The translations under genes were made by a program, and so were the position numbers. From the NCBI GenBank assembly GCA_964654405.1, contig CAZZJJ010000001.1, positions 1-39,862 of the forward strand: DNA of 39,862 bases. The letters are read 5' to 3'. Position 1 is the stretch's first letter. Every line of letters starts with the position of its first letter. Below, one piece after another: positions 11,718 to 35,394 of this stretch. This DNA is from an uncultured Treponemataceae bacterium. Its GTDB lineage: Bacteria > Spirochaetota > Spirochaetia > Treponematales > Rectinemataceae. The notes below the pieces were generated by a model. It saw nothing but the letters and a program-made list of their open reading frames with translations. It was not told the DNA's origin and searched no databases.

Positions 11718-11727
11718 TGATTGCTCC

Positions 11728-12301: not shown

Positions 12302-12309
12302 GGTTGCTG

Positions 12310-13323: not shown

Positions 13324-13388
13324 AGAATGCCTCCTTCAAAATACTTAGATAAAAAGAAGTATAGGAGCCGTGAATATTCGCTGTCAAG

Positions 13389-13421: not shown

Positions 13422-13441
13422 AACGTGAGCAAGGTGGTTTC

Positions 13442-14302: not shown

Positions 14303-14310
14303 GGGGAGCG

Positions 14311-15717
14311 ATGATTTCAATTTCCTCGAATCATGACTTTTTACATTTAAAAGAAAAAATCCGGCGTTTTTTTGAAATGGCCGGAGTGAAAACATTGAAC
14401 CTGGCCGGACGGTGGGAAGGTATTCAGGGAGCCCCAGTCTATACTGTCAACGGCATCTATACTCAGCGCGGGTGGACAGATTGGACTGAAGGATTTCAAT
14501 ACGGCAATGCGATTCTTGTCTATGAATCAACTCATGATCCCCGGCTTCTCATGTACGCCCGCAGGAAAACCCGTGAAAAAATGGCGATTCATGTCAGCCA
14601 CACAGGAGTTCATGACCATGGATTCAACATCATGAGTACCTACGGGAACCTCCTCAGGCTGTCGCGCACAGGTTTGATAGATGCGGATGCATGGGAGAAA
14701 GAATATTATCTGCTTGCAATCAAACTATCGGGTGCAGTGCAGGCCAGCAGATGGACAAGCCTTCATGAGAAACTAGGTTATATTTACTCGTTCAACGGAC
14801 CTCATTCTCTTTTCGCGGATACAATTCGGTCGCTCAGAGTGCTTGGCGCAAGTCATCTTGCGGGGCATTACCTCAAAGCTGAGCAGGATGAGACAATAAA
14901 TCTTTTAGAACGATTGCTGGCCCATGCCGAAACAACCGCCCGATATATTGTGTTTGAAGGGAAAGGGCGAGATCGCTGGGATGTCAGAGGGCGGGTAGCC
15001 CATGAGGCGATTTTCAACCCGGTGAATGGAAGTTATAGATGCCCTTCTTCTCAGCAAGGCTATTCAGCTTTTACTACATGGACCCGGGCATTGGCATGGA
15101 TCATTCTCGGTTTTGCCGAAGAACTCGAGTTTGTTTCTATGCTTCACGAAGATGCCATTCAATCGCTCGAACTTCCTTTCGTAAAGACAAAGACCGAGAT
15201 TATTCAACGGTTTACGGAGGTCACTCGAGCATGCGCTGATTATTTTATTGAGAACACAGCGCCGAACGGCATCCCGTACTGGGATACCGGAGCTCCGAAT
15301 CTCCATAAGCTGGGCGATTATCTCATAAAAAATCCAGACCCCTATAACCCTTGGGAACCAGTCGATTCATCTGCAGCTGCTATTGCCGCCCAAGGCTTGC
15401 TTCGGCTTGGACTGTTTTTAAAAGAGCGGCAGCTTGCTGACGCTGAAAAATATCTTGGATGTGCAATCACCATATCACAAACCTTGTTCTCCGATGAATA
15501 TCTATCCTTGGATGAACAGCATGAAGGATTGCTCCTGCATGCGGTGTATCATGTTCCCAACAATTGGGACAACCCATCGAGCAAATCCTCTTTGCCAGCT
15601 GGCGAATCTTGCATGTGGGGAGATTATCATATTCTGGAACTGGCTCGATGTATTCAACAGATGAATTCCGGCATCAATCCATCACGCTTTTTTGATGGCA
15701 TTTTGGAGGCGGACTGA
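14311..15717 (+). CDS. GH88-like (unsaturated glucuronyl hydrolase family) alpha/alpha-barrel protein
   Basis: WTDWTEGFQYGNAIL, GVHDHGFN and ESCMWGDYHILELA resemble the WxxGFWxG, HDxGF (catalytic Asp) and DYYFLEA signatures I recall for GH88/GH105. GGGGGAG RBS. The protein is longer than the roughly 380-aa enzymes I remember. Confidence 0.6.
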   Translation: MISISSNHDFLHLKEKIRRFFEMAGVKTLNLAGRWEGIQGAPVYTVNGIYTQRGWTDWTEGFQYGNAILVYESTHDPRLLMYARRKTREKMAIHVSHTGVHDHGFNIMSTYGNLLRLSRTGLIDADAWEKEYYLLAIKLSGAVQASRWTSLHEKLGYIYSFNGPHSLFADTIRSLRVLGASHLAGHYLKAEQDETINLLERLLAHAETTARYIVFEGKGRDRWDVRGRVAHEAIFNPVNGSYRCPSSQQGYSAFTTWTRALAWIILGFAEELEFVSMLHEDAIQSLELPFVKTKTEIIQRFTEVTRACADYFIENTAPNGIPYWDTGAPNLHKLGDYLIKNPDPYNPWEPVDSSAAAIAAQGLLRLGLFLKERQLADAEKYLGCAITISQTLFSDEYLSLDEQHEGLLLHAVYHVPNNWDNPSSKSSLPAGESCMWGDYHILELARCIQQMNSGINPSRFFDGILEAD

Positions 15718-16535
15718 TGCGCGATCTTGCAGATATGGCTATCCACACAATAACAACGAAGCCTTGGAAGCTTGATACTGCATTGGAGAAATACGCACAA
15801 GCTGGCATTACGGGTGTCTCTGTATGGAAGGAATCGCTGGAAGGCTTTACGCTGCCGGAAGCCCGCTCATTGCTTGAAACTTCTGGGCTGAAAGTTGTCT
15901 CGTTGGTTCGCGGAGGGTTTTTCCCTGCGTCCAGCCTGGCTCAACGGATGAAAAAGGTTGAAGAAAACAAGCAGCTTATCGATACTGCGACAGCGATTGG
16001 CGCTCCTCTGATAGTATTAGTTTGCGGAGCTGATCCCGGTATTCCGCTCCAGGAGGCGCGAAAGCAGATAGAAGAAGGCATTGCCCAGATTCTTCCTTAT
16101 GCAGAAGATAAGCATATAAAGCTTGCCATTGAGCCGCTGCATCCCATGTATGCTGATGCACGCAGTGCCATCGTAACAATCAGGCAGGCGCATGAGCTGT
16201 GTATTAAATTCGATAGCAAAAGCCTTGGTATTGCCGTGGATGTGTATCATGTTTGGTGGGATCCAGATCTCGAATACCAGATTGAGAAGGCTGGAGAATC
16301 AAATTCGATTTTCGCCTTTCACGTCTGTGACTGGAAGACACCTACATTGGACATGTTGAATGATCGCGGGCTCATGGGAGAAGGGTGCATCCCAATCCGA
16401 ACTATCAGACAGTGGGTCCAAAAAGCCGGCTTCTCCGGATTCAATGAAGTGGAAATCTTTTCAAACCGTTATTGGAGCATGGATCAAGATCAGTATTTGT
16501 CAATGATAGTCAAAGCTTATGAGGAGCATGTATGA
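15717..16535 (+). CDS. Sugar phosphate isomerase/epimerase, xylose-isomerase-like TIM barrel
   Basis: AIEPLHPMY, VDVYHVWWD, FHVCDW, EVEIFS ligand-like pattern. TGATG overlap with the upstream gene. GGAGG RBS. Confidence 0.8.
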   Translation: MRDLADMAIHTITTKPWKLDTALEKYAQAGITGVSVWKESLEGFTLPEARSLLETSGLKVVSLVRGGFFPASSLAQRMKKVEENKQLIDTATAIGAPLIVLVCGADPGIPLQEARKQIEEGIAQILPYAEDKHIKLAIEPLHPMYADARSAIVTIRQAHELCIKFDSKSLGIAVDVYHVWWDPDLEYQIEKAGESNSIFAFHVCDWKTPTLDMLNDRGLMGEGCIPIRTIRQWVQKAGFSGFNEVEIFSNRYWSMDQDQYLSMIVKAYEEHV

Positions 16536-17689
16536 AAGAGACAACTATCGGAATAATCATGAATGGCGTCACAGGCAGAATGGGCACCAATCAGCATCTG
16601 GAACGTTCAATCATGGCGATACGAAAACAAGGCGGTATCCGTCTCGCAGACGGGAATTATCTTGTCCCTGAGCCAATATTGTGTGGCAGGGATGAAGGCA
16701 AACTTAAAAAACTCGCTGACACGTACGGAATTTCGAAGTATTCAACCCAGCTTGATACCGCGCTTTCTGATCCCTATTATAAAGTCTATTTTGATGCCCA
16801 GGTGACCAACCTTCGCCCTGAAGCATTGCAAAAAGCCATGAAAGCCGGCAAAGCGGTTTATTGCGAAAAACCTACTGCCGGGAGTACCAGGGAAGCTCTG
16901 CAGCTTGCGTCAATGGCTGAAAAGCTGGGGCTGAAGAATGGGGTGGTTCAGGACAAGCTTTGGCTTCCAGGCTTGCGAAAACTCAAATACCTTGCAGACA
17001 CAGGCTTTTTCGGCAGAATTCTTTCGGTGCGCGGGGAGTTCGGCTATTGGGTTTTTGATGGATTTTCGCAACCTGCCCAGCGTCCGTCATGGAATTACAG
17101 GAAGGAAGATGGCGGCGGTATTATCATGGACATGTTCTGCCATTGGCAGTATGTCATTGAGAATCTCTTTGGAAAGATTGACGCTCTTTCCGCGATTGGA
17201 GCTATCCATATTGACAAGCGTGTCGATGAAAACGGCCGGCAATATGCAGCAACAGCGGAAGATGCGGCATATGGTACATTTATGCTGGATAATGGAATAG
17301 TATGCCAATTCAATAGCTCGTGGGATGTCCGTGTCAGGCGTGATGATTTGCTTGTGATCCAGTTGGACGGAACCAGGGGGTCAGCTGTGGCTGGTCTACG
17401 AGAATGTTTTATTCAGGATGAAGCCATGACACCCAAGCCAGTATGGAATCCTGATATTCCCAGCAGTATTGATTATTTTGAAAACTGGGCACGAATGCCG
17501 GATCGACAGCACTACGATAACGCGTTTAAAGTTCAATGGGAAAAATTCCTGCTGCATGTCGCTCAGGATGAGCCGTTTCCCTGGACACTGCGGGAAGGAG
17601 CAAAAGGCGTGCAGCTTGCGGAACTCGGCATGCAGAGCTGGAAAGAAAAAAGGTGGCTATCAGTGCCATCTCTTGCAAGCGAGGAATGA
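16532..17689 (+). CDS. Gfo/Idh/MocA family oxidoreductase (long, about 385-aa subtype)
   Basis: IGIIMNGVTGRMGTNQH Rossmann start, VYCEKP motif. ATGA overlap with the upstream TIM-barrel gene. Confidence 0.85.
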   Translation: MKETTIGIIMNGVTGRMGTNQHLERSIMAIRKQGGIRLADGNYLVPEPILCGRDEGKLKKLADTYGISKYSTQLDTALSDPYYKVYFDAQVTNLRPEALQKAMKAGKAVYCEKPTAGSTREALQLASMAEKLGLKNGVVQDKLWLPGLRKLKYLADTGFFGRILSVRGEFGYWVFDGFSQPAQRPSWNYRKEDGGGIIMDMFCHWQYVIENLFGKIDALSAIGAIHIDKRVDENGRQYAATAEDAAYGTFMLDNGIVCQFNSSWDVRVRRDDLLVIQLDGTRGSAVAGLRECFIQDEAMTPKPVWNPDIPSSIDYFENWARMPDRQHYDNAFKVQWEKFLLHVAQDEPFPWTLREGAKGVQLAELGMQSWKEKRWLSVPSLASEE

Positions 17690-17728: not shown

Positions 17729-17800
17729 AGCGACCGATGGGAGTCGAACCCACGTCTCCAGCTTGGAAGGCTGGGGTAATAGCCGTTATACGACGGTCGC
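17729..17800 (-). tRNA. tRNA-Gly (anticodon UCC), CCA not encoded
   Basis: Folded by hand. Acceptor GCGACCG/CGGTCGC. Anticodon stem CCAGC/GCTGG with loop CTTCCAA (anticodon TCC). T arm GTGGG-TTCGACT-CCCAT. 72 nt. Confidence 0.9.
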
Positions 17801-17982: not shown

Positions 17983-18606
17983 ATGGAACTACAGGTTCAG
18001 GAACTTCTGGAACGGATTAAATCCGAAGGAATTGATTCTGCAAAGGCTGAAGCTGGCAGAATCATCGCTGAAGCTGAAGCAAAGGCAGCAGCCCTTTTGG
18101 AAGATGCTGAAAAAGCGGCTTCGGGAAGCGAAGAAGCTGCCCGGCTGCGTATCCAGAACATGGAAAATGCCTCACGCGTCGCGCTGGCGCAAGCTTCCAG
18201 GGACACGCTCCTGGCTCTCAAAGAGAGTGTTCAGACCTTCTTCGATAATTTGATTGTCGCTTCAACCGGTGAAGCCTTTGATGCCAATTTTGTTCAGAAA
18301 ATTCTTCCTGAAATTCTTAAAGAAATGGCGAAGAATTTGAATGGTGATTTTATTGTTTCGGTTCCTGAAAAAGTGCAGGCAAGCCTTGATCAGGCCCTCT
18401 CAGTCCGAATGAGCAAAGAGCTGTCACGGGGAGTTGAATTCAAGGTGTTCCCAGGCATAGACGCCGGTTTCCGTGTTTCAGGTAAGGATAGCACTATACA
18501 GTACGATTTTTCTGCTGAAGCTGTCGCTGCGATTATCTCAGCGCGTCTGAACGCCCGCCTTTCCGAGATTGTCAATGAGTCAGTCAAAGGGAGCCGGAAT
18601 CTGTGA
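17983..18606 (+). CDS. ntpE: V-type ATPase subunit E (peripheral stalk)
   Basis: Ala/Glu-rich coiled-coil N-terminus (AEAEAKAAALLEDAEKAA) and globular C-terminus. First gene of the V-ATPase operon. Confidence 0.8.
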   Translation: MELQVQELLERIKSEGIDSAKAEAGRIIAEAEAKAAALLEDAEKAASGSEEAARLRIQNMENASRVALAQASRDTLLALKESVQTFFDNLIVASTGEAFDANFVQKILPEILKEMAKNLNGDFIVSVPEKVQASLDQALSVRMSKELSRGVEFKVFPGIDAGFRVSGKDSTIQYDFSAEAVAAIISARLNARLSEIVNESVKGSRNL

Positions 18607-19142
18607 GCCGATACTGGTATTTCCCCGCTACACTCCCTGGTTTGATGTTCGGTTCTGCCTCGCCCATGACCGATGAGCAATTCATGGAGATGGCAAGACA
18701 GGCGCTTTCTCCTTCAGACTTTGCCGAACTTGAAACATGCTTGGATATATCCGACATAGGCGCGAAAGAAAAAACATACAACTCACGGCTTCTTGCTGAC
18801 TATCGCGCTTGGGAGCGGGCTTTCAGAAACGAGCTCGCGCGCCTTCGATCCAGAAAAGCCGGCATCGATGAAGAACAATATCTTCGGCAAGGGCCTTGCA
18901 AAGACGAGGCAGCCGCTGCTGCTCAGTCCTGCTTCACGTGCCAGGATCCGCTTGAAGCGGAACTTGCAGCCGAGCATGAACGCTGGCTCGCTGTTGAGCG
19001 ATATTCTGCGCTTTCTTCCTTCGATTTGGATTCAATAATTGCCTACAGAATCAAGCTCGGTATCGTCAACCGATTGAAAAACCTGGAAAAAGAAAGAGGA
19101 ATACTCGAGTATTCCAGATTGTATAAAGAAATAATGGAATAG
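18603..19142 (+). CDS. V-ATPase-operon protein, DUF2764-like (occupies the slot where subunit C/F genes would be)
   Basis: GTG start in a GTGA overlap with the ntpE stop. N-terminal YWYFPATLPGL resembles the YYYL..SLP motif I recall for DUF2764 proteins encoded between the E and A genes. Recollection, not searched. Confidence 0.55.
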   Translation: MSRYWYFPATLPGLMFGSASPMTDEQFMEMARQALSPSDFAELETCLDISDIGAKEKTYNSRLLADYRAWERAFRNELARLRSRKAGIDEEQYLRQGPCKDEAAAAAQSCFTCQDPLEAELAAEHERWLAVERYSALSSFDLDSIIAYRIKLGIVNRLKNLEKERGILEYSRLYKEIME

Positions 19143-19180
19143 GCAGCCTCGAGGGACGCCTATTCCCCGGGAGATGAAGA

Positions 19181-20950
19181 ATGATCCAGACGAACGGTCA
19201 TGTCATAGCAGTCAACGGCAACATGGTTTCCGTCCATGTCGAAGGCGTGGTTTCAATGAATGAAGTCGCCTACATACTATCAGGCGGCCGCCAACTGAAA
19301 AGCGAAGTGATCAGGATCCGAGGATCGGAAGTCCAGGTCCAGGTTTTTGAAATTACAAAAGGAATCCGGATAGGGGATTCAGTAAGTTTTTCCGGAGAAA
19401 TGCTCTCCGTTGAACTGGGTCCTGGCTTGCTCGGGCAGATTTATGACGGACTTCAGAACCCGCTCCCCGAAATTGCTGAGAAAACCGGCTATTTCCTGGA
19501 GCCGGGCATATATCTGAAAGCGCTGAACCGCAGCATCAAGTGGAGATTCACACCTGCGGCAAAACCAGGCGATGTGGTGAGACGCGGATATACCCTGGGG
19601 ACTGTTCCGGAACGGAATTTTATCCATTCCATCATGGTTCCTTTCAACATGTTTGGCGATTATACGGTTGCCAGCATTGCTCCCGAAGGGGACTACACGA
19701 TCGACGAGGAAATAGCGGTAGTAGAAGACAGCCGCGGGAATCGCAAAAGCCTCACGATGACATTCTTCTGGCCGGTCAAACGAGCGGTCGACTGCTATGC
19801 CGAACGGCTGAAACCTACGCAGCCGATGGTCACTAAAACCCGCATCATCGACACATTCTTCCCTGTCGCGAAAGGCGGCACCTATTGTATTCCTGGCCCA
19901 TTCGGCGCTGGTAAAACAGTACTTCAGCAGGTTACGAGCCGCAATGCCGATGTTGATATTGTCATAATCGCTGCTTGCGGCGAACGCGCCGGCGAAGTTG
20001 TGGAAACCCTGCAGGAATTCCCGGAAATCATTGACCCAAGAACTGGCCGCTCTCTAATGGAGAGAACAATAATAATCTGCAACACCTCAAGTATGCCGGT
20101 CGCAGCCCGTGAGGCTTCAGTGTATACCGCGGTAACCCTCGCCGAATATTACCGGCAGATGGGCCTGGATGTTCTCCTGCTGGCTGATTCGACCTCGCGG
20201 TGGGCACAGGCAATGCGGGAAATGTCAGGTCGCCTTGAAGAAATTCCCGGTGAAGAAGCTTTTCCAGCCTATCTTGAATCAGTTATTGCCGCGTTCTATG
20301 AACGCGCGGGTATTGTCAAGCTTTACAATGGAAAGAAAGGCTCGGTTACCATCGGCGGAACCGTTTCTCCAGCAGGCGGGAACTTTGAAGAGCCTGTAAC
20401 CCAGGCTACACTGAAAGTTGTCGGCGCCTTCCACGGGCTTTCCCGCGAGCGGTCCGACGCGCGAAAATACCCCGCGATCCATCCTTTGGACTCCTGGTCG
20501 AAATACCCTGGAATTCTGCCTGAAAAAGCTGTCTCATATGCCCATCATTACCTGGAGCGGAGTTCGGAAGTCGGCGCGATGATGAAAGTAGTCGGAGAAG
20601 AAGGAACCAGCCTTGATGATTATGTCATCTATCTCAAAGGCGAATTTCTCGATGCTGTCTATCTCCAGCAGAACTCTTTCGATCCAGTTGACGCAGCTGT
20701 CAGCCCTGAACGCCAGAAAACAATGTTTACGCTCATCATCCGCATTCTCGGTTCCAGGCTCGAGTTCAGCAATAAAGAAGAAGCCCGTTCCTGGTTCTAC
20801 GAACTGCGGCAGCTTTTCATCGATCTGAACGGCACAGCCCAAGATTCTGATCTCTATCAGCAATTCCTGGACAAAATCGAAAAAGCCCTCGAATCGAAAA
20901 AGCCGGTGCTGCAGCACGGTGCGAAAGCAGTTCTGTCCCTTCTGGAGTAA
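19181..20950 (+). CDS. ntpA: V-type ATPase catalytic subunit A
   Basis: Walker A GPFGAGKTV, LLADSTSRWAQAMRE, and the non-homologous insert typical of A subunits. 589 aa. Confidence 0.95.
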   Translation: MIQTNGHVIAVNGNMVSVHVEGVVSMNEVAYILSGGRQLKSEVIRIRGSEVQVQVFEITKGIRIGDSVSFSGEMLSVELGPGLLGQIYDGLQNPLPEIAEKTGYFLEPGIYLKALNRSIKWRFTPAAKPGDVVRRGYTLGTVPERNFIHSIMVPFNMFGDYTVASIAPEGDYTIDEEIAVVEDSRGNRKSLTMTFFWPVKRAVDCYAERLKPTQPMVTKTRIIDTFFPVAKGGTYCIPGPFGAGKTVLQQVTSRNADVDIVIIAACGERAGEVVETLQEFPEIIDPRTGRSLMERTIIICNTSSMPVAAREASVYTAVTLAEYYRQMGLDVLLLADSTSRWAQAMREMSGRLEEIPGEEAFPAYLESVIAAFYERAGIVKLYNGKKGSVTIGGTVSPAGGNFEEPVTQATLKVVGAFHGLSRERSDARKYPAIHPLDSWSKYPGILPEKAVSYAHHYLERSSEVGAMMKVVGEEGTSLDDYVIYLKGEFLDAVYLQQNSFDPVDAAVSPERQKTMFTLIIRILGSRLEFSNKEEARSWFYELRQLFIDLNGTAQDSDLYQQFLDKIEKALESKKPVLQHGAKAVLSLLE

Positions 20951-20953
20951 GTC

Positions 20954-22276
20954 ATGAACAAGATATATTCACGAATAGAATCCATCACCGGGAACGTTAT
21001 TTCAGTCAGAGCTGAAAACATTGCCTATGGCGAGCTTGCCGAAGTATCGACGCGATATGGGACATCGCTCGCTGAGACAATCCGATTGGATAAAGACCTC
21101 GTGTTTCTGCAGGTTTTCGCCGGCGGACGAGGCGTTTCAACCGGTGACGAGGTGCGGTTCCTCGGTCATCCCATGCAGGTCAGTTTTTCCGATAATCTCC
21201 TGGGGCGAATTTTTGACGGCGCCGGTGAGCCTCGAGACTCAGGCCCCGCACTGAAAGATCATCTGATTACCATTGCAGGCCCCTCGGTCAACCCCTATAA
21301 GCGAATCATTCCCCGCGAAATGATCCGCACCGGCATTCCTATGATCGACCTCTTCAATACCTTGGTCAAAAGCCAGAAACTGCCGATTTTTTCGGTTTCC
21401 GGCGAACCCTATAACCAGCTGCTCGCCCGCATCGCCATGCAGGCGGAAGTTGACCTCATCATCCTTGGCGGCATGGGCCTGAAATTTGATGACTATCTCT
21501 TCTTCAGGGACACGCTCGAAGAGGGCGGAGCGCTTTCCAAAACCATTATGTTTGTCCATACCGCAGCCGATCCGACAGTCGAATGTCTGATGGTTCCCGA
21601 TATAAGCCTCGCTGTCGCTGAACGCTTTGCGCTTAAAGGTAAGAATGTGCTTGTTCTGCTCACCGACATGACCAACTTTGCTGATTCTATGAAGGAAATC
21701 GCCATTACGCAGGAGCAGGTGCCTTCAAACCGCGGCTATCCCGGCGACCTGTACTCACAGCTGGCTTCCCGCTATGAAAAAGCGGTTGACTTCTCTGACG
21801 CGGGCTCTATAACCATTCTTGCAGTTACAACTATGCCGGGTGATGATGTTACCCATCCCATCCCAGACAACACAGGCTATATCACTGAAGGACAATTCTA
21901 CCTCCGAGGCGGCCATATCGAACCTTTCGGCTCCCTTTCACGACTGAAACAGATGGTTAACGGGAAAACTCGTGAAGATCACCGCGCCATCATGGATGGC
22001 ATGATCAAGCTGTTCGCCTCCTATCGTGATACGCTGGAAAAGAAGTCCATGGGCTTCCAGATGACCAGTTGGGACAAAAAACTGCTGAAATACGGCGAGC
22101 TTTTTGAATCGCGAATGATGGATCTTTCGGTCAATGTCCCCCTGGAGAAGGCGCTGGATGAAGGATGGGAGATTCTTGCAGCATGCTTTGAACCCCGTGA
22201 AACGGGTCTGCGTTCCGAGCTCATTCAGAAATTCTGGCCGGCTAGGGAAGGTGCTCTGAAATCCCAGGCTCAATAA
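20954..22276 (+). CDS. ntpB: V-type ATPase subunit B
   Basis: [51 protein letters not shown]. No P-loop, as expected for B. Confidence 0.95.
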
Positions 22277-22294
22277 AGCCCTGGAGCAAATACA

Positions 22295-22906
22295 ATGGCA
22301 AAGATCAAGCTGACAAAAAACGAGCTGAAGAAGAAAAAAGACGCGCTGAAAATGTATCGGCGCTATCTTCCGACACTTCAGCTTAAAAAACAGCAGTTAC
22401 AGATGGAAATTCGCGGGGTGGAAGCGCGGCTTGAACAGCTGCTCGCTCAAAAAGCTGCTTTTGAGAAAGCCTTTGAAGCCTGGATCGCTGTTTTTTCCGA
22501 GCCGCAATACACGCATGACCAGAACGGAATGCCGCTATTAAATATAAAGAAGACTATAGTCTCTGAAGGCAACATAGCCGGTGTTACTATCCCTGTCTTT
22601 GAGAGTGTTGAATTTGATCTTTCTGAATATGATTTGTTCCTGACACCGCTTTGGGTTGACAAGGCGCTTGAACTGATGAAAAACGTTCTGTCCGTCGATG
22701 TGGAATACTCGGTTGTGGAGAAGCAGAAGGATTTGCTCATGTCCGAACTGAGAACGACGACACAACGGGTTAACCTCTTTGAAAAGGTTAAAATTCCTGA
22801 AACGCTTGCAGACATCAAACGAATCAGTATCTATCTCGGTGATCAGCAGACAGCTCAGGTTGTGCGCGGCAAGATTGCGAAGAACAAAGTGGGAGGCCGT
22901 GAATGA
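22295..22906 (+). CDS. ntpD: V-type ATPase subunit D (central stalk)
   Basis: KLTKNELKKKKDALKMYRRYLPTLQLKKQQL coiled-coil start and RRVNLFEKVKIP-like C-terminal helix. Operon position. Confidence 0.9.
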   Translation: MAKIKLTKNELKKKKDALKMYRRYLPTLQLKKQQLQMEIRGVEARLEQLLAQKAAFEKAFEAWIAVFSEPQYTHDQNGMPLLNIKKTIVSEGNIAGVTIPVFESVEFDLSEYDLFLTPLWVDKALELMKNVLSVDVEYSVVEKQKDLLMSELRTTTQRVNLFEKVKIPETLADIKRISIYLGDQQTAQVVRGKIAKNKVGGRE

Positions 22907-24759
22907 TTGCTCCAATGAAACGGTTTACCATCGTTGTCACCAGCCATGATATAGATTCTGCTCCGCACTATCTGAGAAAACTCGGTATCGCCCACATTGA
23001 GCCGCTCGCTGGAGCAGGACAGCACTTCCAGAATCTTGAGCAGCGTAAAAAAGATGCGGAGCTGGCGAAAATCATTCTCGCTTCATATCGAAATAAAAAA
23101 CAAAAAACTGAAGCAGTGTCGCAGCTTTCAACCAAAGAGCTGATCTCCCGTGCTATCGAAGCCAATGCCTTGATTAATTCTTCGCGGGACACGATTGCCG
23201 ATGCTGAAAAAGAGCTTGAGAGAATCCGAAGCTGGGGCGAATTTTCACCTGATCTGTTTCAGCGTTTAAAAACAGATCGAATTCATATCAGACTCTTTGA
23301 AGGGCTTGAAAAAAACCTTTCCGAATTATCTTCTTCCGTTGAATACCTGAGACTTGCTGCCCCAAAGGGTAAAGTTCGAATTGCGGTTTTTAGCAATGAA
23401 GACGTGCCAGCAAGCTTCATGGAGTTCCACGTTCCTGAGGAGAACGCAGCAACGCTTCAGAATCGGATCGCTCAGGAAAAAGAAAAAAGCGCAAAAGCCG
23501 AAGCAGACCTGAGAGAGCTATCAAAAAGCATTGCGAGGGTTGAGCAGGAAATCCGCATAATCGACGCTGAAATAAAAATCGAGTCACTTCGTTCGGGCAT
23601 GCCGCGTGAGGAGCAGCTTGCCTATTTTTCCGGCTATGTGCCAGCCAGGGAATCAGAAAAGCTTAAAAAAGAAGCGAAAAAGCGAAAATGGGCGCTTCTT
23701 GTTGATGATCCGTCGGATGAAGAAACACCGCCGACAAAAATTGAAAACCCGCCGGCTGTCAAAATCATTCAGCCAGTTTTTGATTTTCTCGGAACTGTCC
23801 CCAATTATCGCGAATATGATATCAGCGCGTATTTCCTCGTCTTCTTCTCTCTCTTTTTCGCAATGATCTTCGGCGACGGCGGTTATGGCATGCTTCTTTT
23901 AGGCCTGGCGCTGTTCATGCTCCTAAGAACACGGGCTCAAAAAGCTCCGGTTGGAGATTCACTGAAACTGCTCTTTGTCCTGTCTGCGGTAACAATTGCC
24001 TGGGGTTTCGCAACCGCTTCATGGTTTGCCATTCCCTATGAAACCCTGCCTTCGCTGCTTCAAAAACTTTCTATCCCTGCAATTAGCAGCAACAATCCCA
24101 ATGCAGGCACAAACGTCAAGATTTTTTGTTTTATCCTCGGAACACTTCAGCTTTCCATCGCGCATATCAAGAATATCAAGCGGGATTTTCCAAACCCAAA
24201 GTTTCTCGCCCAGCTGGGATCTCTGTTGATGGTTGTAGGAATGTTCAATGCAGTTTTGAATCTTGTAATCGACTCCCGGCGTTTTCCCCTGCAGGACTGG
24301 GCGCTTGTCTTGATCGGCGGCGGATTCTTCTTGGTTTTTCTCTTTGGGAACTGGAACGGATCACTTGTGGGAAGCTTGATTGAAGGGCTTAAAGGCATTA
24401 TACCTACCTTTTTGGGGACGGTCAGTGTTTTTGCCGATATCACATCGTACATCCGTCTCTGGGCTGTCGGTCTTGCTGGTTTGGCGATTTCCCAGACAGT
24501 CAATGGAATGGTTGTGGGAATGTTCGGCCCATCAGGCCGGATCATATCCTTCATTATTGGAGCAGTGATGGGGCTTGTCCTTCTTTTCGTAGGACATGCC
24601 CTCAATATTGTAATGACGGTGTTGAGTGTGGTTGTCCACGGAATCCGTCTGAATGTACTCGAGTTTTCCAGCCATCTCGGTATGGAATGGTCAGGATATA
24701 AATACGAACCTCTCGGTGAGATCGCCGAGAATATAAATGAACAGGAGAAAGAATTATGA
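22903..24759 (+). CDS. ntpI: V-type ATPase subunit I (a-subunit, stator/ion channel)
   Basis: 618 aa. Cytoplasmic coiled-coil N-half and polytopic C-half with the conserved SYIRLWAVGLA arginine helix. ATGA overlap with ntpD. Confidence 0.85.
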   Translation: MIAPMKRFTIVVTSHDIDSAPHYLRKLGIAHIEPLAGAGQHFQNLEQRKKDAELAKIILASYRNKKQKTEAVSQLSTKELISRAIEANALINSSRDTIADAEKELERIRSWGEFSPDLFQRLKTDRIHIRLFEGLEKNLSELSSSVEYLRLAAPKGKVRIAVFSNEDVPASFMEFHVPEENAATLQNRIAQEKEKSAKAEADLRELSKSIARVEQEIRIIDAEIKIESLRSGMPREEQLAYFSGYVPARESEKLKKEAKKRKWALLVDDPSDEETPPTKIENPPAVKIIQPVFDFLGTVPNYREYDISAYFLVFFSLFFAMIFGDGGYGMLLLGLALFMLLRTRAQKAPVGDSLKLLFVLSAVTIAWGFATASWFAIPYETLPSLLQKLSIPAISSNNPNAGTNVKIFCFILGTLQLSIAHIKNIKRDFPNPKFLAQLGSLLMVVGMFNAVLNLVIDSRRFPLQDWALVLIGGGFFLVFLFGNWNGSLVGSLIEGLKGIIPTFLGTVSVFADITSYIRLWAVGLAGLAISQTVNGMVVGMFGPSGRIISFIIGAVMGLVLLFVGHALNIVMTVLSVVVHGIRLNVLEFSSHLGMEWSGYKYEPLGEIAENINEQEKEL

Positions 24760-30200: not shown

Positions 30201-30635
30201 CCATATCTGGAACTTGAATATTCTGGCTTCATTCCAGAAGACTATATCAATCAGCCGATGCTGAAAATGGAAATTTACAAGAAAATAGCTTCAGTCAGCC
30301 GTCAGCATGAACTTGATGCCTTGCAGGAAGAAATGGAAAACCGCTTCGGGCCGATGCCTGAGGAAGTGCAGTCCTTGCTGTCCCTTGCTGAGATCAGAGT
30401 TATATGCAGAAAGTTGTCAGTTGCCTCTTTGCGTGAAAAGAAGGGTATGGTTCATGTCGAATTCTCCAAGGTTTCCAAGATTTCAGTCGAACGGCTGGTC
30501 CGTCTCATTAAGGAATCCAATGGACGGATTCGCCTCGATCCTGAAAAACCCAATGCGATAATCCTGATGACTAAGGCAATCGGATTGCGGGAAAAGAGCG
30601 AATTTATCCGAGAGCGCCTTGCATCATTGCTATAA
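27249..30635 (+). CDS. mfd: Transcription-repair coupling factor Mfd
   Basis: 1128 aa. UvrB-homology N-terminus, RNAP-interaction region (GDFIVHVNYGIGKF), helicase motifs GDVGYGKTE and DEEQRFG, TRG motif region. Confidence 0.95.
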   Translation: MNKKEPQVLLDFLRHYEPYTALRRLLENGEKTIDIKEAELSFLAMMAAALHRFEKKRLCVVVPTDQDAENFIRDTGFFGAKADVLPWWKTGAYRSVSVRSRIFGERVRTLADLLHGKASLVIASARAYMTPVPPRDYLREKLLVFNRLSRFDPERIADRLSQYGYLRVPRVSLPGEYALRGEVLDIFMPGDNTAFRIQFEFDMIEKITAFDPITQTASGKLDSILLRPIKEVMWEPETLKSVQEKGSGYPQCRERMNILADSLQRQEDGKAEEYWFGSAFDSPHSVAEYFDSDTIILFANIERILAQQESARKEYAGMYRQALRYGAVPPPERCLVEFGTDFDGIHTIVRSFALKDETQMERLSLGSEPGHSYFGNIAYLKEDISNFEKAGYRQYVAAGTDIQAQRLASLISNENCAFLIGDLSAGFTIPGLKLRVIQEQEIFGRKKRTPKSLAASQSSAIENFVELAPGDFIVHVNYGIGKFLSIERMKVLGNERDYIKIAYADAETVFVPIEQANLVQRYIGNEGEAPRLDSLGSKSWENRKKKVRKSVEELAERLIRIYARRKAARGYAFPRDNEWQTAFEASFPYDETIDQLRCIDEIKKDMESPRPMDRLVCGDVGYGKTEIALRACFKAIAAGKQVAFLAPTTILAEQHYENFKERIEQYPVTTAMLSRLVAPKVQKKVLKGLADGSIDMVVGTHRILQKDVVFKDLGLLVIDEEQRFGVKDKERLKEMKAGIDCLTLTATPIPRTLHMSLLKIRDMSILQTPPAERQPIETFVEEYKPEVVARAIRNEIERGGQVFYLHNRIESLQEVEAFLRTIVPEVLTESAHGQMEPRELEDIMHRFIHGAFHVLVSTTIIENGIDIPNVNTIIIDRADMYGVSQLYQLRGRVGRSDRQAYAYLLYPDKRALTEIAMKRLQIISDFTELGSGFKIAMKDLEVRGAGNLLGREQSGDIYSVGFDMYLKLLDDAVNALSGFEPEEEPYLELEYSGFIPEDYINQPMLKMEIYKKIASVSRQHELDALQEEMENRFGPMPEEVQSLLSLAEIRVICRKLSVASLREKKGMVHVEFSKVSKISVERLVRLIKESNGRIRLDPEKPNAIILMTKAIGLREKSEFIRERLASLL

Positions 30636-30638: not shown

Positions 30639-31406
30639 TCAGACGGTGTTTACCGGCTTTATGGTGGCGGGATAACCGATGACGAAAACCGCCGGTACCT
30701 TTGCCGGCATGGTGACTGTAAACGTTTTCCACTGGTCAACCGACTGGCTGATGATAAGCTGTTCAGAAGTGTCAAGGTTGGCTGCAAAGCAAAAATGCAT
30801 ATCTCCGGGCAGAAAGCGCAAAAGATCCTGAATCAGGGCGCGATTTCGGTATGGTGTTTCAATAAAGAGTCGGGTTATTCGATCTTTTGCTGTATCCTGA
30901 CCAATACGGCGGATTACATGCTTTCGCTGTACTGATTCCTGAGGAAGATACCCTAAAAAGCTGAACCGCTGCGCGTCAAGTCCAGAGGCAATAAGCGCTA
31001 AAATAATCGAGGATGGTCCGGAAATCGGTACGACGGTGATATTCTTTTTATGTGCTGCAGCTGTGAGGGCTGCTCCGGGATCAGCGATGCACGGAAGTCC
31101 TGCTTCTGAAAAAAAGCCTGCATCTTCGCCGTTTTCTAAAAGCCTGATAAAATTGAAAATATCCTCTTCCTTGCTATGCTCATCGAGTATGTTGATTGAC
31201 AGGCTGGCAAGATCCTCATTTGGTCTGATCGCTGACAGAAGCCGGTACGCAGTCTTTGAGGATTCAGTGATGAACGTGGATAATCTTCGATATTCAAAAA
31301 GCGCGCGGGCAGGAAGCGAAGATTCGAGGTTGGCCAGCGTCCAGGCATCTCTGCTGTATGGCTGAAGCGGTGCGGGAAGAAGCAAGAGTTTTCCTTTTGC
31401 GCTCAC
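30639..31406 (-). CDS. Tetrapyrrole-methylase-fold SAM-dependent methyltransferase (RsmI/YraL-like)
   Basis: FFSEAGLPCIADPGAALTAAAHKKNITVVPISGPSSIILALIASGL..RFSFLGYLP parallels the RsmI core. GTG start in a GTGA overlap with the upstream stop. Confidence 0.7.
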   Translation of the reverse strand: MSAKGKLLLLPAPLQPYSRDAWTLANLESSLPARALFEYRRLSTFITESSKTAYRLLSAIRPNEDLASLSINILDEHSKEEDIFNFIRLLENGEDAGFFSEAGLPCIADPGAALTAAAHKKNITVVPISGPSSIILALIASGLDAQRFSFLGYLPQESVQRKHVIRRIGQDTAKDRITRLFIETPYRNRALIQDLLRFLPGDMHFCFAANLDTSEQLIISQSVDQWKTFTVTMPAKVPAVFVIGYPATIKPVNTV

Positions 31407-32239
31407 ATGCTTGCTCCAAACAAGGTTTCGAATGCGTCGGTTACCAGAGATGAGAAAATGGCCGGTTTTAAAAAACCGCTGCGAGAAAATTCGCGGATAT
31501 ATTCCTGGCGCGCAAAAGCCAACTCTCTGGAATTATTGGTGATTTTCTTGGCAAACAGGGATAGCTCGACTTCCTGCAATCTGAACACCCTGGTGCCGGA
31601 AAAAACAAGCCGGAAACTCTCAATTTTATTCTGCTGGATCTCTGCCATGCAGACAAAGACCGCCGACTCATGATGTGGAAAGCCCTGGCCGCCGATTTTT
31701 CTATAAAAAACATTGCTATATTCGACAAGCGGGATTCTCACCCTAGTCAGTATACTTTTTTCTGGGAAAAAAGGTTTGCTGCTGCTATCAGCCAGATAAA
31801 ATAGGTTAGCCCAATGCGAGTTTGTTCGATTCCTTATTTCTACCTGAGCGTCCATGCAGACAAGAAAAGGCCAAAGATCCATGAATTGCCGTCTTGAGGC
31901 CAGGTTCCCGCCTAAAGTCGCAATGTTTCTGATTGTAGGGTTGCCAATAGATTGGATAGCTTGTGCAAGAGGGTGGGGCAGAATTCCCGGTCCGAGCGAA
32001 AGAAGACCTGTTAAGCTGGTACAGCTTCCAAACTCCATAAATTGCTCTGTTCTGGTGGTTTTTTTTAGTTCGGGAATTTTAGCGATGCAAGCGATTGATT
32101 GAGGAAACTGAAGAAAACGCGACACCTGGGCTCCAGCGATTTCTGTTCCGCCAGCCAGCAGAATTGTCTCCGGCTGTTCATCAAGCAGAGCCAGCGCGTC
32201 ATTTACCGAAGCGGGATAATGGATTTCACTTATCAGCAC
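31403..32239 (-). CDS. Xanthine-dehydrogenase-family FAD-binding subunit (CoxM/XdhB-like)
   Basis: YPASVNDALALLDEQPETILLAGGTEI and IRNIATLGGNLAS match the FAD_binding_5 pattern. GTG start after GGAGG. Confidence 0.8.
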   Translation of the reverse strand: MLISEIHYPASVNDALALLDEQPETILLAGGTEIAGAQVSRFLQFPQSIACIAKIPELKKTTRTEQFMEFGSCTSLTGLLSLGPGILPHPLAQAIQSIGNPTIRNIATLGGNLASRRQFMDLWPFLVCMDAQVEIRNRTNSHWANLFYLADSSSKPFFPEKSILTRVRIPLVEYSNVFYRKIGGQGFPHHESAVFVCMAEIQQNKIESFRLVFSGTRVFRLQEVELSLFAKKITNNSRELAFARQEYIREFSRSGFLKPAIFSSLVTDAFETLFGASM

Positions 32240-32717
32240 GATGGTATTTCCTCCGATTTTTCAAATCGGCAGCGAGAAAAACCGCTTTTTTGAGACTGAC
32301 GGGGTCAGTGCATGAGCAGGAAACAACTGACAGACTCTCTTCGATCTGGCTTTCGTTGGGGAGCGCAATACGATTGAGCAAATCCCAGATGACAAGAGTT
32401 TTGGCGTTTTTGCAGAAATTGCAGGGATGACAGTGGGCTTCCTGGAAACCTTTTTGGATATCGCGGATATCATCGGAATCGGACAAACCTTCTATAGTCG
32501 TGATTTCAGCGTCACGGGCACGGAATGCAGGAACCAGACAGGAGTAAACGAGGCGTTTGTCCATAATAACGAGGCACTTTCCGCAATGCCCCGAAAGACA
32601 ATCCGGAATAAGGCTTTTAATAGGCGGATGTTCCTGTGTTAAAATGGTGGAAAGGCGGTCCCCGCTTCGGATTTTTACGTTTTTTGTTATGCCATTCAAT
32701 TGGAAAGTAATAGTCAT
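32226..32717 (-). CDS. Xanthine-dehydrogenase-family [2Fe-2S] subunit (CoxS-like)
   Basis: CLSGHCGKC...SC (plant-type cluster motif) and CHPC...CSC (second cluster). Start set at MTITF (ATG 32717), preceded by GGGAGG and forming an ATGA overlap with the large-subunit stop. Confidence 0.85.
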   Translation of the reverse strand: MTITFQLNGITKNVKIRSGDRLSTILTQEHPPIKSLIPDCLSGHCGKCLVIMDKRLVYSCLVPAFRARDAEITTIEGLSDSDDIRDIQKGFQEAHCHPCNFCKNAKTLVIWDLLNRIALPNESQIEESLSVVSCSCTDPVSLKKAVFLAADLKNRRKYHRADK

Positions 32718-34804
32718 GTGGCCTCCCATATCCGCATGACATCATGAGGACTGGCTGGGATTGAGGGCAAATTGAGCCCCAACGCCTGCGATAGAGCGCC
32801 GTAATATGCCGAGGGGATTGTTGCAAACGGCAATTCTCCTATCCCGAGCGCTGAAGTTCTGTCCGAATCCATAAATTCTATGACAATATCGGGAATCTCA
32901 TTGAATGGCAATCTTTTTTTCGCGAGATAGCTGGACGAGTCGAGTGTTTCCGGCACCACATCATCAAGAAGGCATAATCGCAATGCATTGACAGCCTGAG
33001 CCCGCAGAGAGGATTCCGCAACAGGCTTATTGATGATTCTGCCGGCGTCGACAGCCATCCAAATTGTTAGCGGCTTTACCTGTCCGGTTATGGCGTCAAC
33101 TTCCAGTTCAATAATTGTACCGCACCAGCTGGCTGCGTCAAAAGCTTTTCCAGACAATCCATCTTCGGTCCATTGAATACTAGGATTGCACTGCATCTGC
33201 GATTTTACAGTAAGCGGAAGAGTTTCTCTGAAGCGTTTTTTCTGCAAGGCTCGGCAGGACCGCTCGATAAGTTTGTTGATTGCAAAGACGCCACGGGACA
33301 CAACCATTGGTCCGCATCTACTGTTTGAGTGAACACTTTCCTGAATGACATGTATTGAACGTTCAGGCAGAGACAGTATTTCGCTGACTGTTTTTTTCCA
33401 CATGAGCCTTGCATTTTCAGATGAAATGGCTGCTTCTGTTTTAATGACAATCGTGAGGTCTTTTTCAAGCTGTACTTCGACTGAATATCGATTCTTTTCG
33501 GGAATGTTTAAAAATGCGTCTCCTGTCAGATAACCAAAACTGCCTGCTATGCCCCGGATGATTCCCTTCCTGCTTGCCGGATCGCGCTTTCTGATAACTT
33601 CATAGCTTGCATGTTTACGCTGGAAGTCAGCCATGATTTCGAGCTTTTGCTGAATTTTGGAAAAAGGAATGACCGATGAAACCTGAACATCGCCATGAAC
33701 GGTCATTCCCTTTGCAATCATATTGATGGCTTTGATTTCCGCTGGTGATTTCTGACATTTCCGGGCAAGATGGTTTAAATGAGCGTCAAGGGCGAAAAAG
33801 CCATGAATTGAACCAAGATTGCCGAGAGCGCCGAGGGGAATAACATTTGATTGAACAGCAAAAGCATCAATGGAGACAACAGGGCAGGCATATATTCCAA
33901 GCAAAGAAAGCACCGCGTGATCGAGCAGCTCCTCAGCCAATGGATTGTATGCCCCAATGTTGATGACTAGGCGAATATCCAATGAGGCCAGGCGCCCCTG
34001 CTGGTCGGAAAGGGAGCTTATTGAGATGCAGCTGCGTGCTTGCTTCGGCGCGAAGCAGTAATCTTCGCCTCGCGTGTAAAGGATTTTAACCGGTTTATTG
34101 CACAGCCGGGCGGCACACGCGGCGTGACAGGCAATCAGAGAAGGAAACCAAATTCTGCCTTCGATGCTTTGTCCCAGATCTGTTGGCCGTATCAGAATGT
34201 CTTTCTGCGGAACTTTAAGTACCTCGGAAATTGAGCTTCGAACATGGTTTGGCCACTGAGAAGCGCAGTATATAACCAGTTTGTCATATTCCCAGACTGC
34301 AAGGGCAGATGAAGGTTCAGAGTACTCGTGGTCAAATGAACCAGTCCAATGTGTTGTCGTTTCCCACTGCTGATCTGATATGCCCTTCGGGGTTGACACT
34401 TCGGTTTTGCCGATCCGAATTCTTTTTCTTGCTGCGATACGCGATGAAGGAAATGTCGTCCAGCTGAAATTTGGTTCGGACTCGCGGTAGGCGACTTTTA
34501 CGTTTAAAGACAGGTTGTCGCAGAGCACGGGATCAGGTCCGACAATCAACCCAAGCGGCTCCCCCCGATATCGAATTGTATCGGTCGCAAAGAGCGGAAT
34601 TCCATCTGAAAATTCAAGTGACATGCCGTCTTTTACCATATCTTCAGGCAGAATCATTCTGTAGCCAAAAGGAAGCTGTGAACGCTGAACAGAAAACTCT
34701 TTTGCGTAAGCAACTGTTGAGCGGATAGTCGAAGCGAAAAGCATATCCCGGACTTCAAGAAGAGTAAGAATGGGCAGCTGCTCGCCCGGTTTCATGCTAC
34801 TCAT
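32714..34804 (-). CDS. Xanthine dehydrogenase/aldehyde oxidase-family large (molybdopterin-binding-type) subunit, divergent
   Basis: a/b-hammerhead-like N-terminus (DMLFASTIRSTVAYAKEFSV, IRYRGEPLGLIVGP), NKPVKILYTRGEDY, C-terminal ALGIGELPF. Several canonical glycine-rich motifs were not seen (see findings). Confidence 0.75.
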   Translation of the reverse strand: MSSMKPGEQLPILTLLEVRDMLFASTIRSTVAYAKEFSVQRSQLPFGYRMILPEDMVKDGMSLEFSDGIPLFATDTIRYRGEPLGLIVGPDPVLCDNLSLNVKVAYRESEPNFSWTTFPSSRIAARKRIRIGKTEVSTPKGISDQQWETTTHWTGSFDHEYSEPSSALAVWEYDKLVIYCASQWPNHVRSSISEVLKVPQKDILIRPTDLGQSIEGRIWFPSLIACHAACAARLCNKPVKILYTRGEDYCFAPKQARSCISISSLSDQQGRLASLDIRLVINIGAYNPLAEELLDHAVLSLLGIYACPVVSIDAFAVQSNVIPLGALGNLGSIHGFFALDAHLNHLARKCQKSPAEIKAINMIAKGMTVHGDVQVSSVIPFSKIQQKLEIMADFQRKHASYEVIRKRDPASRKGIIRGIAGSFGYLTGDAFLNIPEKNRYSVEVQLEKDLTIVIKTEAAISSENARLMWKKTVSEILSLPERSIHVIQESVHSNSRCGPMVVSRGVFAINKLIERSCRALQKKRFRETLPLTVKSQMQCNPSIQWTEDGLSGKAFDAASWCGTIIELEVDAITGQVKPLTIWMAVDAGRIINKPVAESSLRAQAVNALRLCLLDDVVPETLDSSSYLAKKRLPFNEIPDIVIEFMDSDRTSALGIGELPFATIPSAYYGALSQALGLNLPSIPASPHDVMRIWEAT

Positions 34805-35328
34805 GTTTTTACGGTCTCAACGGTTTCAAGTATGTCAAAACCAAGTACGATAGTCATCTGGGAATTGCAAATATCGAGCTGTATAGTAGCCCTCCGCTTT
34901 CTTTTATTTACCTTAACTATATTCCCTTCATAACCGGCAAGCGGACCATCTATAACCCGAATCTTGTTGTTCTCATCGAATACGACACGTGAATTGCCGA
35001 TTTCATGTCTGAAAGAGATGAAATGGCGGATTATTTCCGCATCCCTCTGACAAAGGGGCTGGATATTGTCAGTAGATGGAAGGATTCGCAGAAAATATTT
35101 CGTTTTTCGAATAGCCTGAACCAGTTCTGGGCTCAGGTGCTCATCATGGTACTGAAAAAAGAGATATCCCGGGAATAGGCTGGACTGAATTTTAACGGGT
35201 TTTCCTGCTTTTCTTGAGGAAGTTGTTTTGACAATGTGATGAATGGTGATGTCAGCCCTGTGGCGGAAGAGGAGTTCCTTATAGAGTGCCTCTCGGCCAG
35301 AAATTACCTGAATAGCAAAAAAATTCAT
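34801..35328 (-). CDS. Specialised NusG paralog (NGN + KOW domains)
   Basis: NGN-like FAIQVISGRE...LFPGYLFFQY...IRKTKYFLRIL and KOW-like VIDGPLAGYEGNIVKV. Start at ATG 35328 (MNFFAIQ). The longer ORF to 35451 would overrun the ligA start. ATGA overlap with the downstream large subunit. Confidence 0.75.
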   Translation of the reverse strand: MNFFAIQVISGREALYKELLFRHRADITIHHIVKTTSSRKAGKPVKIQSSLFPGYLFFQYHDEHLSPELVQAIRKTKYFLRILPSTDNIQPLCQRDAEIIRHFISFRHEIGNSRVVFDENNKIRVIDGPLAGYEGNIVKVNKRKRRATIQLDICNSQMTIVLGFDILETVETVKT

Positions 35329-35346
35329 GACGTACCTTTTAACGTA

Positions 35347-35375
35347 TTGATGATGTTCTGACAGCATTCTATGAT
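35347..35375 (+). promoter_or_regulatory. Candidate sigma70-type promoter of ligA
   Basis: TTGATG (35347-35352), 17-nt spacer, TATGAT (35370-35375). Confidence 0.4.
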
Positions 35376-35394
35376 TGCAGAGGAAATTTTGCAA
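35366..35394 (-). promoter_or_regulatory. Candidate sigma70-type promoter of the NusG-paralog operon
   Basis: Minus strand TTGCAA (35394-35389), 17-nt spacer, TAGAAT (35371-35366). The -10 overlaps the ligA -10 by 2 bp. Confidence 0.4.

Follow-up and report, generated by a model that had tools for sequence, protein, structure and literature searches.

A LoaP-class NusG paralog at the head of a spirochaete operon for an atypical xanthine dehydrogenase-like enzyme

Genes, junctions, and promoter of the operon

A stretch of 39,862 nucleotides from an uncultured Treponemataceae bacterium (GenBank assembly GCA_964654405.1, contig CAZZJJ010000001.1, positions 1 to 39,862 of the forward strand), hereafter called the window, was analyzed for a group of genes between positions 30639 and 35328. 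Five consecutive open reading frames (ORFs) were present there on the minus strand, at 34801-35328, 32714-34804, 32226-32729, 31403-32239, and 30639-31406. They encode a paralog of NusG, three subunits of an enzyme resembling xanthine dehydrogenase (XDH), hereafter the trio, and a methyltransferase. The true start of the iron-sulfur (Fe-S) gene was placed at 32717 instead of 32729, as a GGGAGG Shine-Dalgarno lies 4 nt upstream and the length fits homologs of 161-163 aa. The features of the operon are as follows.

34801-35328, minus strand: LoaP-class NusG paralog, 175 aa, first cistron (NGN + KOW; NCBIfam and AlphaFold2)
32714-34804, minus strand: large subunit of the divergent XDH/molybdenum-hydroxylase family, 696 aa (MoCoBD_1, MoCoBD_2)
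32226-32717, minus strand: small subunit with two [2Fe-2S] sites, 163 aa (Fer2_2)
31403-32239, minus strand: medium subunit binding flavin adenine dinucleotide (FAD), 278 aa, GTG start (FAD_binding_5)
30639-31406, minus strand: methyltransferase with RsmI-like TP-methylase fold, 255 aa, last cistron, joined by a GTGA overlap
35366-35394, minus strand: predicted sigma-70-type promoter (TTGCAA, 17 nt spacer, TAGAAT), from a promoter scan
35329-35365, minus strand: 5' untranslated region (UTR) of about 30 nt with a weak AAAGG Shine-Dalgarno, its start placed from the promoter position

An earlier note on this DNA had described five ORFs chained by four overlaps and separated from mfd by 3 bp, and direct reading of the sequence bore out all of these. 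The paralog and the large subunit meet in an ATGA at 34801-34804, the large subunit and the Fe-S gene in another ATGA at 32714-32717, the Fe-S and FAD genes overlap by 14 nt (32226-32239), and the FAD and methyltransferase genes share a GTGA at 31403-31406. The methyltransferase stop codon (30639-30641) lies 3 bp from that of the convergent mfd (30633-30635). The same overlap geometry was also seen in relatives. As overlapping junctions are common in the window as well, at about 6-7 of about 17 other same-strand junctions, the chaining represents ordinary operon architecture. Shine-Dalgarno sequences preceded the Fe-S (GGGAGG), FAD (GGAGG), and methyltransferase (GGAG) starts, and none was found in the window before the start of the large subunit (gagaccgtaaaaacATG). 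The earlier note had observed this correctly and had proposed that translation of the large subunit depends on coupling to the paralog. The missing signal is specific to the window and its closest relative, while in most relatives the last codons of the paralog gene contain a Shine-Dalgarno of the AGGAG type that serves the large subunit. Strict dependence on coupling is therefore particular to the window, where it is plausible, and does not extend to the relatives.

Both domains proposed for the paralog were matched above their Pfam cutoffs, with 32.7 bits for NusG and 24.2 bits for KOW. Its best NCBIfam match was LoaP (NF033641) with 121.6 bits (cutoff 125), ahead by about 70 bits. The profiles of nusG (TIGR00922), UpxY (NF033644), and RfaH (TIGR01955) reached 52.9, 43.5, and 37.2 bits against cutoffs of 135.7, 100, and 144.5, respectively. 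LoaP was the best match for all 36 of the 36 orthologs collected, with a best E-value of 6.8e-46, and some of them scored well above the cutoff, among them the ortholog at locus L089 with 146.6 bits. The gene does not lie in the secE-nusG-rplK context, and the earlier view that it encodes a specialized NusG rather than the housekeeping one agrees with the profile scores. FPGY, the motif with which the NGN domain of NusG proteins contacts RNA polymerase, and a basic KRKxRAK-type KOW motif were invariant or nearly so across the orthologs. In the window clade the paralog was under purifying selection, with a ratio of nonsynonymous to synonymous substitution rates of 0.03-0.16.

The AlphaFold2 model of the paralog (pLDDT 88.7, pTM 0.80) comprised an alpha/beta NGN domain at residues 1-104 and an all-beta KOW barrel at residues 113-166. 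The top Foldseek matches of this model were the chains of 8F5G, with TM scores of 0.77-0.79 over 172-173 columns and a root-mean-square deviation of 3.3 Å, while other NusG and RfaH structures superposed on a single domain only. LoaP is described as the sole NusG-like protein of bacteria to recognize a particular RNA, and on that ground we equate 8F5G with the published LoaP-RNA complex; the 8F5G chain itself scored 143 bits on NF033641 and is thus LoaP-class. The source of that description (PMC12691694) also reports LoaP genes in Spirochaetota, adjoining polysaccharide or secondary-metabolite operons, and states that LoaP proteins promote antitermination. Profile scores and predicted fold together place the paralog of the window among the LoaP-class specialized NusG proteins.

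The predicted promoter lies just upstream of this first gene, its -10 element ending 37 nt before the ATG of the paralog. Of the 26 window-type loci, in which the paralog directly precedes the trio, 23 had the pattern TTGCnn-N16-18-TAnnnT at this position, as against about 2% of random 208-nt stretches. The five genes read as one operon transcribed from this conserved, putative sigma-70-type promoter. The Shine-Dalgarno region of the paralog (window 35340-35352, minus strand) is AAAGGTACG, and many window-type loci have AAGGCGGA, AAGGCAGA, or CAGGCGGG instead. These last three resemble the first bases of the ops core GGCGGT; they are probably just the ribosome-binding site.

Conservation of the linkage and shortening of the ancestral module

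The first homologs, with 53-97% identity, carried the same five genes but also the same ligA-to-mfd neighborhood, and were therefore not independent observations. This shared neighborhood would fit an adjacency that arose by chance, or as lineage synteny like that of the ligA and mfd neighbors. A survey from the enzyme side with a large-subunit profile yielded 80 reference-genome loci with 30-82% identity from Treponemataceae, Rectinemataceae, Breznakiellaceae, and Gracilinema. Of the 66 genome loci whose upstream sequence extended to 3.6 kb or more, 63 had the paralog upstream on the same strand. It abutted the large subunit, as it does in the window, in 27 of 70 genome loci, and about 2.65 kb away from it, with two sugar-nucleotide genes between, in 43. 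The first of the intervening genes encodes a Polysacc_synt_2 (PseB/PglF-like) UDP-N-acetylhexosamine 4,6-dehydratase, and the second a DegT-family (PseC/ArnB-like) aminotransferase.

The resulting six-gene unit was found at L089 (large subunit with 26% identity), where LoaP is the first ORF and dnaE, yggT, and recG follow, and at L091 (28% identity), where a class-II aminoacyl-tRNA synthetase gene follows. It was also present in the cultured Treponema primitia, with flanks unlike those of the window, and in a metagenome-assembled genome (MAG) of Gracilinema caldarium. The junctions were overlapping or tight throughout the module loci. From the paralog side, metagenomes provided 44 loci that continued for 5.4 kb or more downstream, and the trio was present in 37 of them. 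The genes following the paralog in these 44 loci were distributed as follows.

Trio directly: 18 loci
Dehydratase, aminotransferase, trio: 11 loci
Dehydratase, trio: 8 loci
Sugar genes only, no trio: 7 loci

Chance or lineage synteny is extremely improbable as the origin of the linkage, since the module recurs with entirely different flanks, was recovered from the enzyme side and the paralog side alike, keeps overlapping or tight junctions, and contains a paralog under strong purifying selection. The association is real and combinatorial, with LoaP as its constant head. The earlier note had placed the paralog first in an operon for an XDH-family enzyme, which agrees with the conserved promoter and with a linkage that persists across unrelated flanks. 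That note knew of no described case of such a pairing, and our literature search likewise found no published description of a NusG paralog paired with an XDH-family operon.

The variant with a dehydratase followed by the trio, in which no DegT aminotransferase was detected, occurred at L116, L124, L127, L131, L153, L166, L168, and L170, which come from termite-gut and other metagenomes. At L124 the large subunit begins at 8067, after a dehydratase that ends at 8022. Among the loci with at least 3.6 kb upstream, only L066, L067, and L078 carried the trio with no paralog detected within 7 kb upstream; they belong to termite-gut Treponema MAGs and to Spirochaetia MS502-93. The trio of L066 is preceded by TPR and TraB/GumN-family genes.

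In a neighbor-joining tree of the large subunits rooted on L089 and L091, all window-type loci (26/26) formed one clade, which was nested among loci with sugar genes; both outgroups also carry sugar genes. The direct fusion of LoaP to the trio is therefore derived by deletion, a polarity which, as the tree is without bootstrap, rests on the monophyly and the outgroup state. A divergent gene pair upstream of the paralog, encoding one protein with a SPOR domain and a secreted one of about 170 aa, occurred at 35-39 other loci and was missing from all 26 window-type loci. The window lineage thus lost gene pairs on both sides of the paralog and kept the paralog with its promoter, now between ligA and the trio. 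Loss of the sugar genes downstream and of the SPOR/170-aa pair upstream, both in the ancestor of the window clade, would have left the paralog joined to the large-subunit gene by the ATGA overlap. The ancestral, widespread form is reconstructed as LoaP, a PseB/PglF-like dehydratase, a PseC-like aminotransferase, and the large, Fe-S, and FAD subunits, and a sugar or polysaccharide context of this kind is typical for LoaP. The pairing of a NusG paralog with a redox enzyme seen in the earlier note thus stands, but not as a pairing that arose de novo, since two sugar genes lie between them in the ancestral operon.

The members of the divergent pair were located at 3109-3582 and 1514-3085 in L062, at 1334-1840 and 48-1310 in L172, and at 3099-3647 in L034, all on the minus strand. 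One of the two proteins has about 160-180 aa, begins with a hydrophobic segment resembling a signal sequence, and matched nothing in Pfam. The joint loss of this pair and the sugar genes in the window clade hints at a single envelope-related functional unit. A short candidate motif, (C)TATCGG(C), recurs at a similar distance, about 90-130 nt, upstream of the paralog ATG in many ancestral-type loci (e.g., L029, L034, L062, L068, and L079), close to the start of the divergent gene for the protein of about 170 aa.

The DegT protein linked to the trio kept its catalytic lysine (SFYATK, 50/50) and had no Fe-S cysteine motif. It scored 335-358 bits as a PseC/ArnB-type aminotransferase and 133-164 bits as RfbH. 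The idea that the FAD and Fe-S subunits serve as the reductase of a DegT 3-dehydrase, as in E1/E3, AscC/AscD, or SpnQ, where an FAD/[2Fe-2S] reductase supplies a PMP/[2Fe-2S] dehydrase, was rejected, as this DegT is an aminotransferase without cluster cysteines. The trio and the sugar genes also occur separately, in the seven trio-less metagenome loci and in the window clade. A position of the module within a large glycan cluster was ruled out as well, with aroB and unrelated or unknown genes following the trio in ancestral-type loci.

Relatives of the paralog outside the module, with 40-42% identity, head ordinary polysaccharide clusters of the ABC/Wzt-rml or epimerase type. At L006 (1816-4936), a LoaP homolog with 40% identity heads a cluster of Wzm/Wzt ABC-transporter and rml genes. 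Upstream of it lie HEPN/nucleotidyltransferase and AbiEii genes and an unannotated gene of 176 aa that overlaps the LoaP start by one base.

At the other end of the operon, the methyltransferase matched the TP_methylase domain with 29.5 bits (Pfam cutoff 27.8). RsmI is the 16S rRNA C1402 2'-O-methyltransferase, and its models reached 93.3 bits (TIGR00096, cutoff 167.9) and 63.4 bits (PRK14994, cutoff 502), which is short of the equivalog level. Window-type loci and their sister group carry the gene, and T. primitia, L089, L091, and many other loci do not. It belongs to particular lineages as a tail gene, outside the core module. The fold named in the earlier note as a TP-methylase was thus confirmed and refined to RsmI-like, in a gene that only part of the family carries. 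The closeness of mfd, to which that note had attached meaning, proved to be lineage synteny, as mfd was likewise missing at T. primitia, L089, L091, and many other loci. Neither mfd nor rsmI was retained as a component of the system, the former being synteny and the latter an accessory gene.

The earlier note had also considered that the paralog is an NGN/KOW protein repurposed to work with the enzyme itself. It would then be a subunit in fixed stoichiometry, an assembly factor, or a chaperone of the XDH-like complex. Such a role would suit the overlap of the large-subunit start with the paralog stop and its lack of an own Shine-Dalgarno in the window, the survival of the paralog beside the trio once the sugar genes had been lost, and a search for nucleic-acid recruitment signals that found none. 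It is nevertheless very unlikely. The FPGY motif is conserved and the predicted two-domain fold agrees with that of LoaP bound to RNA, the paralog and the trio are kept apart by two unrelated genes in 43 of 70 genome loci, and relatives have an independent Shine-Dalgarno for the large subunit. Moreover, the same paralog heads loci without a trio, and the three loci described above have a trio with no paralog detected.

The xanthine dehydrogenase-like enzyme

The closest solved relatives of the large subunit were quinoline 2-oxidoreductase, nicotinate dehydrogenase, and XDH. The trio resembles 1T3Q quinoline 2-oxidoreductase, 3HRD nicotinate dehydrogenase, XdhABC, PucCDE, and 4-hydroxybenzoyl-CoA reductase in its large, small, and medium subunits. 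It also shares with the three-subunit molybdenum hydroxylases the eight Fe-S cysteines, the FAD_binding_5 motifs, the active-site glutamine, and, in the window, the catalytic glutamate. All eight [2Fe-2S] cysteines were kept in 79-81 of 84 members, and the AGGT and TxGGN motifs for FAD in 68-78 of 78, so the electron path from FAD to the two [2Fe-2S] clusters is intact. The active-site glutamine Q183 was present in 83 of 83 members and the catalytic glutamate E657 in 76 of 83.

Unlike in these hydroxylases, the signatures of the molybdenum site were replaced in this clade as follows.

GGGFGGK: replaced by TxLGxxLDG(K/R)LWYP, chiefly TDLGxxLDG(K/R)LWYP
(F/Y)RG(F/V)G (FRGFG): replaced by (A/P)(F/M/L)GxxG, chiefly ALGxxG
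(M/I)GQG (MGQG): replaced by I(S/G)S

In ordinary family members these three segments line the molybdenum-pterin site, and the active site of the trio has therefore been rebuilt. A pseudoenzyme was ruled out, as the replacement motifs are themselves strongly conserved. The ordinary homologs P0066-P0076, which include the Hydrogenispora enzyme, keep all three signatures. Further differences concern the domains: the a/b-hammerhead domain of the large subunit remained below the cutoff (20.7 against 31.3 bits), and CO_deh_flav_C was not detected by Pfam in the FAD subunit despite its usual length, whereas the ordinary XDH of Hydrogenispora has it. The large subunit reached about 99-122 bits on equivalog models with cutoffs of 780-995 for named enzymes (XdhABC, PucCDE).

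No gene for biosynthesis or maturation of the molybdenum cofactor (Moco) was found among the 25 ORFs of the window that were scanned (1-20950 and the operon). The trio differs in this from the ordinary XDH of Hydrogenispora, which is adjoined by a MocA-like gene. The trio is probably not an ordinary XDH but a divergent three-subunit redox enzyme. The rebuilt motifs make canonical Moco use doubtful, and the trio may not use the canonical cofactor.

In sister lineages the catalytic glutamate was replaced by glutamine (GGI(A/S)Q(I/L)PD) in P0060, P0061, and P0063, and by aspartate (xGD(L/M)P) in P0062, P0065, P0068, and P0069. The distant large subunits include those at L089 (3338-5392) and L091 (7001-9043). 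The loop equivalent to GGGFGGK differs again in distant large subunits and reads EPYHHTYDEKLILP in the group of P0060, P0061, and P0063.

Mode of action and relation to known systems

The paralog would bind the RNA polymerase that transcribes its own operon, through the conserved surface of its NGN domain, and would keep that polymerase processive through the translationally coupled gene chain of about 4.7 kb. As the transcript is nearly leaderless and has no LoaP-type hairpin, recruitment would occur by an unrecognized signal or by proximity, the freshly synthesized factor engaging the polymerase of the transcript that encodes it. Processivity or antitermination in cis on the own transcript is the most likely mechanism, which we favor with moderate confidence.

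Several findings weigh against this reading. The paralog of the window lies 3.4 bits under the curated LoaP cutoff. A UNCG hairpin of the LoaP type was absent both upstream and at any conserved internal position in 67 loci, and ops-like elements matched at chance level, with none in the leader. In ancestral-type loci an extended -10 element often ends just 9-14 nt before the paralog ATG, so many of their transcripts are nearly leaderless. Intrinsic-terminator-like hairpins showed no excess on the sense strand, with 45 sense against 56 antisense in 63 loci and 358 kb, and nothing obvious in the operon would therefore need antitermination. The known targets of NusG paralogs are also long next to this operon of 4.7-6.7 kb, and the relatives at 40-42% identity that head polysaccharide clusters leave room for targets in trans. 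The recurrent UNCG matches inside the transcripts fell within the NAD-binding motif of the dehydratase and were dismissed as coding-driven. An operon laden with terminators was not supported by the window scan or by the sense and antisense counts. The Rfam scan of the window returned one tRNA only and no family at the operon.

The same findings bear on a second explanation, in which the paralog is a true LoaP-type factor acting in trans elsewhere, for example on polysaccharide operons, and its position before the trio is a relic that supplies the promoter. The lack of a recruitment element and of terminators in the operon, the ABC/Wzt-rml or epimerase clusters headed by the closest relatives outside the module, and the 7 of 44 paralog-anchored loci with sugar genes and no trio all speak for it, and purifying selection on the paralog fits it equally. 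A relic would hardly be expected to keep its place ahead of the trio in 63 of 66 loci that are deeply diverged and differ in their flanks, or to survive deletions on both sides and remain fused to the trio. LoaP, UpxY, and TaA are, moreover, described as encoded beside their target operons (PMC7819879). We regard a role in trans, the main rival, as rather unlikely, and action in cis remains the preferred reading.

The system shares several traits with LoaP, which antiterminates the dfn and mln operons (Bacillus velezensis, Thermoanaerobacter-type). These are the best profile match, the basic KRKxRAK-type KOW motif, the predicted compact arrangement of NGN and beta-barrel KOW as in 8F5G, and a gene at the head of the operon that it presumably controls. 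Unlike for LoaP, the window operon has neither a UNCG hairpin nor a leader terminator, and its 5' UTR of at most about 30 nt differs from the long structured leader of LoaP. The operon of 4.7-6.7 kb is not rich in terminators, and its cargo is a redox enzyme, alone or accompanied by two sugar-nucleotide enzymes, where LoaP serves a polyketide synthase or a large polysaccharide cluster. Dedication to one or few operons is shared with UpxY and RfaH, and UpxY likewise opens the operon in which it is encoded. The paralog differs from UpxY in its score (43.5 against a cutoff of 100) and in a second gene that encodes a large subunit or a dehydratase, not a UpxZ-like protein. It differs from RfaH in its score (37.2 against 144.5 bits), in the lack of ops in the leader, and in a KOW domain predicted as all-beta instead of the autoinhibited alpha-hairpin of RfaH.

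Outside the operon, the window contains a cluster of sugar- or cyclitol-type catabolic genes at 1875-17689. It comprises several GFO/IDH/MocA oxidoreductases, xylose-isomerase-like TIM barrels, an Ldh_2 protein, an amidohydrolase, a TctABC transporter on the minus strand, and a protein of 468 aa without Pfam match (14311-15717). A tRNA gene lies at 17729-17800 on the minus strand (Rfam, 60.6 bits). The plus-strand genes at 17983-24759 look like a V/A-type ATPase operon, in which a DUF2764 protein and the catalytic A subunit were identified.

XDH-like genes are also found in other spirochaetes, namely bb_0554-0556 ('xdhACB') of Borrelia burgdorferi and TPASS_0079 and TPASS_0081 of T. pallidum, which are candidate relatives of the trio. 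TP0077 is Cap5D-like, TP0078 SpsC-like, and BB_0552 ligA, which would match the module; we treat this as a lead and not as a result. The Borrelia genes are co-transcribed, form an XDH-like set of large, FeS, and FAD subunits, and are required for resistance to reactive oxygen species and survival in ticks and mice, while their activity was not confirmed biochemically and B. burgdorferi has extremely low iron stores (PMC9993122). In T. pallidum, TPASS_0079 and TPASS_0081 were computationally labeled XDH-like, and TPASS_1032 is a NusG-like hypothetical protein (PMC5951579).

The LoaP class was known before, and a sugar-nucleotide context is expected for it. What is new is the conserved trio as LoaP cargo, the remodeled active site, and an operon with no known LoaP or RfaH recruitment feature. 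A wider reading is tentatively possible, though doubtful: the trio would be a lineage-wide spirochaete complex on an XDH scaffold, without a canonical molybdenum site, whose expression is hard-wired to a hairpin-independent LoaP, for example in cis. As part of this reading, the ancestral partners of the trio would be enzymes that make a 4-amino-4,6-dideoxy-hexosamine.

The conserved module joins a NusG paralog, two sugar-nucleotide enzymes, and an atypical XDH-like enzyme in spirochaetes, and is unstudied apart from work on the possibly related Borrelia trio. As a LoaP-class operon that is short and without the recruitment and termination features of the Bacillus paradigm, it is a natural test case for the way in which such factors reach their targets and for the purpose that they serve. 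The remodeled motifs give a concrete reason to doubt the label "xanthine dehydrogenase" for the enzyme family of the module. The module may include a Borrelia locus that is essential in ticks and mice and whose chemistry has never been confirmed. On the wider, doubtful reading, if bb_0554-0556 and TP0079-0081 of T. pallidum belong to it, the virulence-critical 'XdhACB' of Borrelia would not be an XDH but part of this envelope- or stress-related module.

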